This document shows positions 293 to 59,710 of a DNA stretch of 64,000 nt, one piece after another (positions within the stretch are counted from its first letter, which is position 1; each line of letters opens with the position of its first letter). The DNA is from Agarivorans sp. (GTDB lineage: Bacteria; Pseudomonadota; Gammaproteobacteria; Enterobacterales; Celerinatantimonadaceae). The notes beneath the pieces are model-generated. The model did not search any database. It worked only from the letters and a program-made list of their open reading frames with translations, and was not told where the DNA came from. Location: NCBI RefSeq assembly GCF_050295395.1, contig NZ_JBNKPP010000092.1, positions 21,654 through 85,653 of the forward strand, written 5' to 3'. The translations under genes were made by a program, and so were the position numbers.

Positions 293-1513
293 TTAATAGT
301 ATTGCTTAGCTTGATACAAGCCCACAGCACCGAGTATTTTTTTTACAGGTTTTTTTAGCTCTACCAGCAGTTGCTTGGGAAGGCCTTTAAGCAATAGGCA
401 ATAGGCATCGAGATAGTGTTTTATGGCAAAAGGCTGGCCTATTTGTTTGGCCCAAACCACAATTTCTTTAAGTAAAGGGTCATCGCTTATCAATAGTTTC
501 GCAATGAAGTGTTGCTTATGTTGATAATACACAGCTAAATCAAAGCGCTCTTTATAGAGTTCAAGTTTGCCGGCTAAATCTAAAGTCAGTAGGGTTCGCA
601 AGCATTTGTCACAGTGAGAGCAGTTATTCGCACTGTCGCCTTTCACGCAAACATCCAATACCTCGTAAGAGTACTCGCTTTGTGCGACCTTGAGGGTTTT
701 TTCTATTCGCGAATATTCACTGCCTACCGAGTGGCTTTGCAGTGACTCGGTAGACATTAGTGGCAAGCTAAATAGATCGCTATAGGCCATATCGTAACTG
801 GGGCCAACAAAAACATCGTGATAACTGTAAGCTGAAGAGTAAAGAAAGTGAGCAATGTGATTTTGCAGCAATAAAGGGACGGCTGCATTACGAATGGTAT
901 GAGTAAGCTGAAAATCTAGTACCTTGCCATAGAAGTCATCCATATTGGAGTTGACCATAATGAAAGGTAAATCCCATTTATTGGCGGTGGTGCGTAATTG
1001 TTGGTAACGCTCCTTAAATAAGCGTTCTTCACCTACGCCATGTGAGCCCACATTGTTATAAAGTAAATGGGTAATTTTAAGCTGCTTTGGGCTGTGTTCT
1101 GCGAAGTAATCGCATATCGTGCTAAACGAATCGATGCCTGCGGAAAACCCGCTAATTACTCCTTCGCCAGCAGCCACTTGGGAACTGCAGCGTTCAGCAG
1201 AAATGTTAATCCTGTTTAAGAATGGGATCTGTTGCAAAACTAGGCTTTGATAGGGGCCATTTAAGTTAAACAATAAGCGCTCAGAGACGGCATCCTTTAT
1301 ATGAATATCTTCCTTAGCTAACATCGCAGGCAATAATAAGGCAAGTAAAGCGCTATCCGCATTATTGGTCAGACTTATAGATGGACAATGACTGACTTCA
1401 AACCATAACTGCTGGGCTTGCTCCTTGAGAGTGAAGTCTACTTGGTAAACTTTACTGTCCGATTTTTCAATAATGTTAATAGGACCAATGTCCATAAGCG
1501 TTTTCCTTAACAT
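293..1513 (-). CDS. PP-loop (adenine nucleotide alpha-hydrolase-like) protein with QueC-type Zn cluster, putative polysaccharide-modifying enzyme
   Basis: GFSAGIDS PP-loop-like motif; C-x8-C-x2-C-x2-C (CVKGDSANNCSHCDKC); co-oriented and 24 bp upstream of the flippase. Confidence 0.6.
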   Translation of the reverse strand: MLRKTLMDIGPINIIEKSDSKVYQVDFTLKEQAQQLWFEVSHCPSISLTNNADSALLALLLPAMLAKEDIHIKDAVSERLLFNLNGPYQSLVLQQIPFLNRINISAERCSSQVAAGEGVISGFSAGIDSFSTICDYFAEHSPKQLKITHLLYNNVGSHGVGEERLFKERYQQLRTTANKWDLPFIMVNSNMDDFYGKVLDFQLTHTIRNAAVPLLLQNHIAHFLYSSAYSYHDVFVGPSYDMAYSDLFSLPLMSTESLQSHSVGSEYSRIEKTLKVAQSEYSYEVLDVCVKGDSANNCSHCDKCLRTLLTLDLAGKLELYKERFDLAVYYQHKQHFIAKLLISDDPLLKEIVVWAKQIGQPFAIKHYLDAYCLLLKGLPKQLLVELKKPVKKILGAVGLYQAKQYY

Positions 1514-4235: not shown

Positions 4236-4558
4236 TGTTTTGGTTAATAAATTGCTGGGGATGTTTGGGTATTTTGTTACACTAACAAGCTGGTTTATGC
4301 TCAACATTATTGGCTCAAATGGATTTGCGGTTAATGTTTTTTAAGCTCTTAGATTCTCGTAGTTACGGTCGCGTTTTTAGCATCAAGCGACGGTTTCCTG
4401 TGACTATTAGGCCTGTGTTTAAGTCTTTTCGCTACCTATCGCTCAAGCAACAGCATGATAACCTAGCCCGACATCCCTTTACGCCTGAAACTTTCGGCAT
4501 TTTATTCTCATCCCGTGTGCAGCGGGCTCTACCCTCAAGCATTGGAGAACAAGCTTAA

Positions 4559-58779: not shown

Positions 58780-58869
58780 ATGGCTTTTTCAAGTTTTCGC
58801 GGTGCTTCAGGTGCAACCTTTTGTCCAAGTAAATCTAACGACCAGCAAACTCGTCGTGAAACAAAGTAA
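58780..58869 (+). CDS. Candidate 29-aa small ORF
   Basis: GAGG RBS, MAFSSFRGASGATFCPSKSNDQQTRRETK*. Confidence 0.4.
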   Translation: MAFSSFRGASGATFCPSKSNDQQTRRETK

Positions 58870-58903
58870 GTGGCTAGCCACGCGGTGCAAAAACCAGTGA
58901 ATA

Positions 58904-58929
58904 AAGCGCTTATCTACAACTAAGCGCTT
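58904..58929. terminator. Shared terminator hairpin between two convergent small transcripts
   Basis: AAGCGCTTA-TCTACAAC-TAAGCGCTT perfect 9-bp stem; TTTATT follows on the minus strand, CTGCTTTTCTT on the plus strand. Confidence 0.7.
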
Positions 58930-58967: not shown

Positions 58968-59144
58968 TTAATTGGCTCTAGGCCGATAGCGATCATTGAA
59001 ATGACTCGCCTCATCGATATGTTTTAACTGGCTTAACTCACTGAAATAGAGAGACTTAGCTGAGTTTAGTGGTCGAGGCTGGTAATAACGCTTAGCCCTT
59101 GGCTGAGTGGTAATAAACGTTTCTTTTTGTATGGCTTCAAACAT
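58968..59144 (-). CDS. Unannotated 58-aa protein downstream of a SAM-II-like riboswitch
   Basis: AAGGAG RBS 6 nt before ATG; MFEAIQKETFITTQPRAKRYYQPRPLNSAKSLYFSELSQLKHIDEASHFNDRYRPRAN*; below the ORF-track length cutoff. Confidence 0.7.
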   Translation of the reverse strand: MFEAIQKETFITTQPRAKRYYQPRPLNSAKSLYFSELSQLKHIDEASHFNDRYRPRAN

Positions 59145-59174
59145 ACGAACTCCTTTATCTTAGTTCGCGCGCAG

Positions 59175-59228
59175 GGCGCTTTAGCTGTATTTGTTAGCCG
59201 CCCGCAAGTTGGCAATAAATCGGCGACA
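59175..59228 (-). ncRNA. SAM-II-type riboswitch aptamer
   Basis: GUCGCC-GAUUU-AUUGCCAAC-UUGC-G-GGCGGC-UAACAAAUACA-GCUAAA: P1 stem plus the GAUUU, UUGC and GCUAAA core elements in order. Confidence 0.8.
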
Positions 59229-59233
59229 CCCTT

Positions 59234-59262
59234 AAGATATACTTTAGACGTCTAGATGTCTA
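59234..59262 (-). promoter_or_regulatory. sigma70 promoter driving the riboswitch transcript
   Basis: -35 TAGACA (59262-59257), 17-bp spacer, -10 TATCTT (59239-59234); predicted +1 at the start of P1. Confidence 0.65.
59246..59261. promoter_or_regulatory. MetJ operator (two tandem Met boxes)
   Basis: AGACGTCT (8/8) + AGATGTCT (7/8). Confidence 0.88.
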
Positions 59263-59350
59263 ATCCCTTTTGCTTCCATCTCATAATTTTTAGTTATTTC
59301 GCTTGCTCACGGTTAGACTACAGATAAGTGATTGAGTGAGTAGATCTTAA

Positions 59351-59710
59351 ATGTTGCGTTTGTTTACCATGTTAATGGCTTGGCTGGCGGTAGTGCTGGG
59401 AACCATTGGCATCTTTCTTCCCTTATTGCCCACCACACCGTTTATTCTATTGGCGGTGATGCTGTTTTCCCGCAGTTCCCCGCGCTTTGAGGCTTGGTTG
59501 CATAATCACCCTCGGTTTGGCCCGCTGATTAACGATTGGCGCAACCATGGCGTGGTAAGTGTAAAAGCCAAGTGTAGCGCCACCATCATGGTGGGCTTTT
59601 CCTTGGGCTTGATGCTGTGGATGAAGCTACCCCAATTGGCTATGTGGCCAGCTATCGCCTGTTTAGCCGCGGTAATGATATTTTTGTGGACTCGCCCTTC
59701 CCAAAAATAA
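59351..59710 (+). CDS. ybaN: YbaN (DUF454) family inner-membrane protein
   Basis: GIFLPLLPTTPF.LLA, RSSPRF..WL..HP.FGP.I.DW. Confidence 0.9.
   Translation: MLRLFTMLMAWLAVVLGTIGIFLPLLPTTPFILLAVMLFSRSSPRFEAWLHNHPRFGPLINDWRNHGVVSVKAKCSATIMVGFSLGLMLWMKLPQLAMWPAIACLAAVMIFLWTRPSQK

Follow-up and report, generated by a model that had tools for sequence, protein, structure and literature searches.

A candidate MetJ operator and a SAM-II-like aptamer are predicted in series on a small Agarivorans gene

We studied the control region of a 58-codon gene of Agarivorans sp. that lies in a 64-kb stretch of contig NZ_JBNKPP010000092.1 (the whole stretch is called the window below), and found that the gene is predicted to be shut off by S-adenosylmethionine (SAM) at two successive points: a candidate operator for the repressor MetJ covers its promoter, and its transcript would open with a SAM-II-like riboswitch aptamer. 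The open reading frame (ORF; 58968-59144, minus strand) would be transcribed alone, from about 59227 to about 58900 on the minus strand (a unit of about 330 nt), and encodes an Agarivorans-specific protein of 58 residues. A preliminary description of this DNA had proposed a two-layer SAM switch with transcriptional and translational sensing; the operator proved to be conserved and the aptamer credible, whereas the translational part had been assumed, and our folding models show no SAM-dependent change in the accessibility of the ribosome-binding site. From the sequence comparisons described below, we consider it rather probable that both locks are functional on the small-gene transcript.

The predicted sigma-70-type promoter of the small gene (59234-59262, minus strand) came from a consensus scan and comprises a -35 hexamer TAGACA (59262-59257), a 17-nt spacer and a -10 hexamer TATCTT (59239-59234), with a predicted transcription start near 59227. 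It agrees with the consensus at 9 of 12 positions, a score that is frequent by chance (3 seen vs. 1.1 expected per 700 bp). Two tandem Met boxes (59246-59261), which the preliminary description had correctly placed over this promoter, cover the -35 hexamer and the spacer (about -34 to -19, counted from the predicted start). Read on the plus strand, they are AGACGTCT at 59246-59253 and AGATGTCT at 59254-59261; read on the small-gene strand, they are AGACATCT-AGACGTCT. The pair agrees with the two-box consensus AGACGTCTAGACGTCT at 15 of 16 positions (one mismatch), and the consensus was matched only once within the window. None of 100 shuffles reached one mismatch or fewer, and the chance expectation at three mismatches or fewer is 0.08 for the window. 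The candidate operator has the two or more tandem 8-bp repeats that characterize MetJ sites, overlaps a promoter and is conserved in orthologues, which supports its prediction as a MetJ operator acting on the small-gene promoter.

The conservation was read from an alignment of eight orthologous upstream regions that represent about six lineages. The same rigid order was present in all eight: a palindrome, ATAAC-N5-(G/A)TTAT, followed by 20-21 nt, the two Met boxes, another 22-23 nt, and CCGAUUU, where the aptamer loop begins. Between these elements, the 21- and 22-nt spacers diverge among the orthologues. A -10 of the form TAnnTT is retained 6-7 nt past the Met boxes in 8 of 8 sequences, with the -35 at the same offset too. 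On the small-gene strand the boxes read AGACATCT-AGACGTCT in locus L001, as in the window, AGACATCT-AGACGGCC in L003, L005 and L123, AGACATCT-AGACGGCT in L249, AGACATCT-AGATGGCT in L122 and GGACGTCT-GGATGTCT in L006; all eight share the core GAC(A/G)TCT(A/G)GA(C/T)G, and both flanks diverge.

These comparisons bear on the possibility that the gene has one lock only, namely that the SAM-II aptamer works and the boxes are promoter sequence that resembles a MetJ site by chance, with MetJ not involved. The distal box overlaps the -35 element, which would be conserved anyway, so part of the conservation of this box could come from the promoter alone; in most lineages the proximal, second box has eroded to AGACGGCC or AGATGGCT, with 6 of 8 matches left in several of them; and the small gene is neither a known methionine gene nor found in published MetJ regulons. 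Promoter spacers normally vary, yet here the core of the boxes is kept in all eight sequences between diverged flanks, and a match of 15 of 16 positions never arose in the shuffles. Even the eroded boxes, with 6-7 of 8 matches each, resemble those of the metJ operator at locus L248 (see below). Two observations argue for selection on the Met boxes themselves: the proximal box is kept within a normally free spacer, and L006 retains 13 of 16 box positions despite a -35 altered to TGGACG. We consider an aptamer acting alone behind a fortuitous MetJ site to be improbable.

A second possibility is that the operator serves, mainly or also, the divergent gene ybaN (DUF454; 59351-59710, plus strand; Pfam PF04304, E 7.6e-37), with the small gene under the riboswitch only or with the operator shared between the two. 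The ATG of ybaN, at 59351, lies 90 bp from the Met boxes, in line with the approximate distance given in the preliminary description, and the gene is always adjacent and divergent in Agarivorans. A weak promoter-like site that faces ybaN on the plus strand (TTGGCA-18-TAAGAT, 59209-59238, inside the aptamer DNA) would start transcription immediately before the Met boxes, where a bound repressor could act as a roadblock. This site is a 9 of 12 match of the kind expected by chance, its spacer is 19 nt in L006, and its -35 lies within the aptamer DNA, which accounts for its conservation. Also, the register of the boxes is fixed to the minus-strand -35 and -10 and to the aptamer, not to the ybaN ATG; the stretch between the boxes and ybaN diverges, with insertions and deletions in L006, L122 and L123; and a MetJ regulon survey makes no mention of ybaN or DUF454. 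Although ybaN is a possible second target of the candidate operator, we find it unlikely that the operator serves ybaN mainly or in addition to the small gene.

An operator of this kind implies a repressor, and the preliminary description had called for metJ to be confirmed in the genome. By tblastn, metJ is not within the window. A protein search with E. coli MetJ gave only enteric and Pasteurellaceae clusters among the best 120 of 2950, and a degenerate pattern for the metJ core gave no Agarivorans among the matches listed (at least 120). These matches were from Vibrionaceae, Alteromonadaceae, Shewanellaceae, Pseudoalteromonas, Aeromonadaceae and related groups, and the MetJ core was near-identical in the 117 genomes with a readable gene, or in every one of 119 by another count of the genomes sampled from these neighbouring families; MetJ is present in 62 of 62 surveyed genomes of these groups (PMC4239095). 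The tail motif PLPDDADLQK, read from a high-depth contig, formed the basis of a later scan, in which TGQPLPDDxDLQK was found in five genomes including Agarivorans sp. DSG3-1 and Agarivorans sp. QJM3NY_25. Over residues 3-91, the MetJ of QJM3NY_25 (L248) shares 85% identity with that of E. coli. Its gene is preceded by four tandem Met boxes, AGACGTCA ACACTTCT AGACGTCT AAATGTCT (L248 4898-4929); they sit between metJ and a divergent gene, where the autoregulatory operator of metJ is expected. The QJM3NY_25 chromosome (NZ_CP194041.2) carries metJ and also, at L006/L091, the small-gene orthologue together with Met boxes and aptamer.

For the strain of the window itself, the evidence came from sequencing run X1, one of three mixed communities (X1, X2 and X18) that also contain Pseudoalteromonas and Vibrio metJ. 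In X1 the contig of the window was recovered at a depth of 9.74 with 4 differences in 2.1 kb, together with a 1752-bp contig at a depth of 12.3 that carries an Agarivorans-type metJ, 87% identical to that of QJM3NY_25; the listed differences between the two are spaced 3 nt apart and the 5' leader is the same. Comparison of the mixed runs with a Vibrio metJ gave several metJ variants; one candidate contig turned out to be from Pseudoalteromonas and was not used. Since metJ was found in Agarivorans genomes and in the X1 contig at matching depth, the objection that the genome lacks the repressor is not borne out.

The second element, the SAM-II-like aptamer (59175-59229, minus strand), begins next to the predicted transcription start. 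At gathering score, Rfam reported no family anywhere in the window. A sensitive search of 801 nt with RF00521 (SAM_alpha) gave 21.4 bits (E 0.022; 59236-59161, minus strand) over the full model, a score below the gathering score of 36. The defining anatomy of SAM-II is predicted all the same. Helix P1 has 6 bp, formed by GUCGCC (59227-59222) and GGCGGC (59202-59197); loop L1 carries a U-run at 59219-59217 within an invariant GAUUU; and the candidate strands of the pseudoknot are CUUGC (59208-59204) and GCUAAAG (59185-59179), the latter with an unpaired U at 59183. The crystal structure PDB 2QWY identifies the SAM-contacting nucleotides, and in it the unpaired U reads the adenine of SAM (PMC3303485). 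With roles assigned from that work, all SAM-contacting nucleotides are kept in the window, and the aptamer is invariant across Agarivorans.

In an alignment of 25 aptamer sequences, standard pairs occupy 95.7% of the cells overall (97% in P1 and 94% in the pseudoknot helix P2). The two outer P1 pairs covary, one as AU/CG/GC/UA and the other as GC/CG/UG, the second including a G-C to C-G swap between a beta- and gammaproteobacterial set and Agarivorans. The P2 pairs are invariant, in part as a consequence of the way in which the comparison sequences were chosen, and the pseudoknot thus provides no covariation. When the signature GAUUU..GCC..CUUGC..CAGCUAAAG was scanned genome-wide, we obtained 34 matches, of which about 28 were clear aptamers by inspection and the other five chance. 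The clear ones belong to Wenzhouxiangella, Nitrosomonadales, Chitiniphilus and other beta- and gammaproteobacteria, and terminators and met genes lie downstream of many of them; as a group they are probably equivalent to the 'metXZ element' that Leyn et al. described. Of nine such loci searched with Rfam, four scored at or above the RF00521 gathering score and the rest just below it. Five loci (L086, L089, L099, L105 and L110) have the full SAM-II signature and a met-gene context and were not reported at that score, whereas near-identical aptamers were. The RF00521 threshold cuts through this beta- and gammaproteobacterial subfamily and misses the window aptamer and several of its relatives.

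We also built a covariance model, R1, from 17 SAM-II-type aptamers from outside Agarivorans. It gave the window 58.2 bits, a score that is inflated because the comparison set was picked with a pattern derived from the window and whose independent information lies in P1 and the linker; three divergent Agarivorans copies had 54-55 bits, and nothing else exceeded 13 bits in 127 kb. With its SAM-II-like anatomy, P1 covariation and R1 score on one side and its shortfall at the RF00521 gathering score on the other, we regard the leader as a credible divergent member, or near relative, of SAM-II. In two of the metagenome-assembled genomes with such aptamers, two SAM riboswitch classes occur on opposite strands a few hundred bases apart: a Wenzhouxiangella genome has a SAM-I riboswitch and a SAM-II-type aptamer at one divergent locus (L093, 816-930, minus strand, and 1391-1466, plus strand), and a Lysobacteraceae genome has a SAM-I and SAM-II-type pair too (L105, 4183-4307, minus strand, and 4460-4502, plus strand).

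How the aptamer might act on the gene is less apparent. Between the aptamer and the start codon, two conserved hairpins (59145-59179, minus strand) are predicted in every lineage. The first (59179-59169) has the form GCGC(C)-loop-(G)GCGC, with a loop length that differs among lineages; the second (59168-59145) has the form (G)CGAAC(U)...(A)GUUCG(U), which in the window is GCGAACU/AGUUCGU, and holds the Shine-Dalgarno (SD) sequence AAGGAG (59155-59150). Both stems are invariant and both loops vary in length and sequence; the hairpins show no covariation, and RNAalifold on the leaders found no pair changed on both sides. The aptamer tail reads GCUAAAGCGCC, and the SD lies 24 nt further 3' in its separate hairpin, outside the P2b strand and unlike canonical SAM-II. 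Partition-function folding in four lineages gave equal SD and AUG accessibility with the aptamer free or locked, and we accordingly propose no model of SD sequestration. A long-range helix between the 3' strand of P1 with the L3 linker and the start-codon region appeared in the minimum-energy fold of the window; by inspection, it would not be kept in L006 or L122. No T-run terminator follows the aptamer in the window leader.

This leader raises a third possibility, in which MetJ would be the sole SAM sensor and the aptamer would either have lost SAM binding, as a relic, or have taken on another role, stabilising the 5' end by its structure or forming part of a small RNA. The score below the Rfam threshold, the SD outside the pseudoknot, the missing terminator, the lack of a switch in the folding models, and a downstream gene unlike the known SAM-II targets metX, metY and metA all fit such a view. 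A relic would decay, yet all SAM contacts of the crystal structure are kept and the aptamer is invariant while its flanks and the middle of the coding sequence have strongly diverged; this disfavours a relic. There is also a precedent for translational regulation at a distance by SAM-II, shown for S. meliloti metA (PMC9373788). We judge a relic or repurposed aptamer to be very unlikely.

In the mechanism that we propose for two working locks, SAM would shut off the small gene first at the promoter and then in the leader RNA. At the first level, SAM-loaded MetJ dimers would cooperatively occupy the two Met boxes and keep RNA polymerase off the promoter, a step that we infer from the box sequence and how it is conserved, and from the finding of metJ. 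At the second, the transcript would open directly with the H-type pseudoknot of the SAM-II-type aptamer, and binding of SAM would fix both the GCUAAAG tail and the A-rich linker in P2 and in base triples. The free linker and tail may serve ribosome loading, in which case SAM would remove a single-stranded standby site and translation would drop from a distance. Because the SD sits 24 nt downstream in a constitutive hairpin, loss of a standby site appears the most likely output and is our best guess from the anatomy of the leader; Rho-dependent termination and changed RNA stability are alternatives, equally open, and the output of the aptamer is the weakest link of the proposal. With two locks in series, expression would need both low occupancy by SAM-MetJ and an empty aptamer.

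Besides the eroded proximal box, the overlap with the -35, the sub-threshold RF00521 score, the selection behind the R1 score, the invariant P2 and the leader without a visible switch, two further points weigh against this proposal. The evidence for metJ in the strain of the window is indirect, since it comes from a mixed-community run only. Also, profile searches of Pfam, NCBIfam, PHROGs and PDB with the small protein gave no match, and there is hence no family that would link it to methionine metabolism; the hints of such a link are limited to the SAM aptamer and the absence of internal Met (see below). As to transcripts, four RNA-seq runs labelled as the same organism had zero reads over the small-gene promoter; metatranscriptome contigs extend over no more than the conserved aptamer and the N-terminal part of the gene in relatives, and may be DNA.

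The small protein (MFEAIQKETF...SHFNDRYRPRAN) has homologues of 56-67 residues, found only at syntenic Agarivorans loci. Three of them are close homologues; an exhaustive profile search over 1.8 billion representatives, in which all homologues were from Agarivorans, contributed two distant ones, and the QJM3NY_25 copy and one on a further contig are added to these. They share an N-terminal MFEA[IV]QKE and a C-terminal S-x-F-[NK]-D-[RS]-Y-R-P, and the middle is free to vary. In the end motifs, synonymous codons turn over: Ser is encoded by four codons from both families (AGC/AGT/TCG/TCT), Arg by five and Pro by three; insertions and deletions are in frame. Judged by this codon turnover, the small ORF is clearly translated and under selection at the protein level. 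An AlphaFold model (predicted local distance difference test, pLDDT, 65; predicted template modelling score, pTM, 0.20) contains a single helix at residues 28-46. Internal Met is absent from the 410 residues of the seven homologues, compared with 1.8% in the long ORFs of the window; a Met-free protein fits synthesis under methionine starvation, a suggestive point that carries little weight since the seven homologues are related.

Upstream of the Met boxes lies the 15-bp palindrome (59283-59297), centred near -62 and always 20-21 nt from the boxes in the eight orthologous promoters. The palindrome alone is not rare by chance (0.71 expected per window). It fits the generic LysR-type T-N11-A box and may be the site of a further regulator; its position at about -62 would suggest a third, activating input. 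The consensus of MetR is TGAA-N5-TTCA, which the palindrome does not fit. Putting these features together, we offer, tentatively, a wider reading in three parts: a SAM-II aptamer was acquired or retained in a MetJ lineage and was coupled serially to a MetJ operator and, probably, to a LysR-type activator site; the target, a lineage-specific, Met-free and largely disordered protein of 58 residues, would be a new effector of methionine or SAM starvation; and the aptamer would act at a distance, through a standby site or Rho, not by SD sequestration. As a whole, this wider reading is possible but doubtful.

The gene order at the Agarivorans loci is hemL, a 94-residue ORF, ybaN, the small gene, the dUTPase gene and mrcB. 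HemL of the window shares 90% identity with its counterpart in Agarivorans sp. QJM3NY_25 and 83% with the one in Aliagarivorans marinus. A locus search based on ybaN gave no matches. At the corresponding locus of Aliagarivorans the small-gene arrangement is not shown: for Aliagarivorans marinus (L007, 7290-7970), the ORF list lacks a minus-strand ybaN as well as a dUTPase gene and a small gene on the expected strand, and it includes a 119-residue plus-strand ORF that overlaps a minus-strand ORF. If those genes are absent from Aliagarivorans marinus, the genes between hemL and mrcB would represent an insertion specific to Agarivorans.

Downstream of the small gene, a terminator scan identified, on the plus strand, a bidirectional terminator hairpin (AAGCGCUUA...UAAGCGCUU, 58904-58929). 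Its stem is invariant in relatives; in L003 and L005 a run of T follows it on the small-gene strand. The hairpin is common to the small gene and a convergent 29-codon ORF (58781-58870, plus strand). The latter, of 29-33 residues (MAFSSFRGASGA[TS]FCPSKS...) and with a strong SD (GTAGAGGTAA), is conserved in the group of the window and in QJM3NY_25; L122 and L123 have instead an ORF of about 63 residues that resembles a signal peptide.

Taken singly, MetJ operators and SAM-II riboswitches are familiar, and their combination here is a new pairing of known parts. Operators of the E. coli type (metA, metBJ, metC, metF and others) likewise place two or more tandem 8-bp AGACGTCT repeats on a promoter and use SAM as corepressor; their targets are methionine biosynthesis and transport, whereas here the target is an orphan protein of 58 residues, there are just two boxes, and the transcript also bears a SAM aptamer. 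The aptamer is predicted to have the same H-type pseudoknot layout as RF00521 and the metXZ element (Leyn et al. 2014), with P1, a U-rich L1 and CUUGC-GCUAAAG. It differs from alphaproteobacterial SAM-II, in which the SD is in the P2b strand, and from betaproteobacterial metX and metZ leaders, including those of Nitrosomonadales, in which a hairpin and T-run form a terminator. The known SAM-II targets are metX, metY, metZ and metA; the gene in the window is none of these, and its host is a gammaproteobacterium of a MetJ lineage.

The logic of an initiation repressor combined with a checkpoint in the leader RNA, both on one pathway signal and with a multiplied dynamic range, is shared with the E. 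coli trp operon (TrpR and attenuation) and the B. subtilis pur operon (PurR and a guanine riboswitch). Those systems use other molecules, whereas here SAM would be the ligand of repressor and aptamer alike. Closer to the present case, when about 200 proteobacterial genomes were surveyed in 2014, MetJ and SAM-II riboswitches turned up in different lineages: SAM_alpha occurred only in Rhizobiales and Rhodobacterales and in none of 62 MetJ-bearing genomes (PMC4239095). The combination is thus unusual, as the preliminary description had said in noting that MetJ lineages generally do without SAM riboswitches. The single overlap of a transcription factor with SAM-II in that survey is the hom-metXC operon of Oceanicaulis alexandrii, under SahR and a SAM_alpha riboswitch (PMC4239095); SahR senses S-adenosylhomocysteine, so the two layers read different metabolites, and the case concerns a biosynthetic operon of an alphaproteobacterium. 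In Sinorhizobium meliloti, metA and metZ have a SAM-responsive promoter and a SAM-II riboswitch that controls translation from 74 nt away (PMC9373788). There, too, the same metabolite state acts on promoter and leader, and the start codon is not adjacent to the pseudoknot; S. meliloti is without MetJ, its promoter regulator is unidentified and the targets are biosynthetic, whereas the repressor site can be identified here. We found no published case that pairs MetJ with a SAM-II riboswitch on one gene.

The new points are the protein and RNA sensors for the same ligand, the unusual host lineage and the orphan target. If both elements work, this would be the first case, as far as the 2014 survey and our literature searches reach, in which one gene is controlled serially by a protein repressor and a riboswitch with a common ligand. 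It would provide a compact natural system in which to study the threshold and dynamic range of stacked sensors for one metabolite, the entry of a riboswitch class into a genome that has a dedicated repressor, and the regulation by a SAM-II aptamer of an SD that it does not contain. For Agarivorans, the small orphan protein would be a likely player in methionine or SAM starvation, with a clear condition under which to study it.

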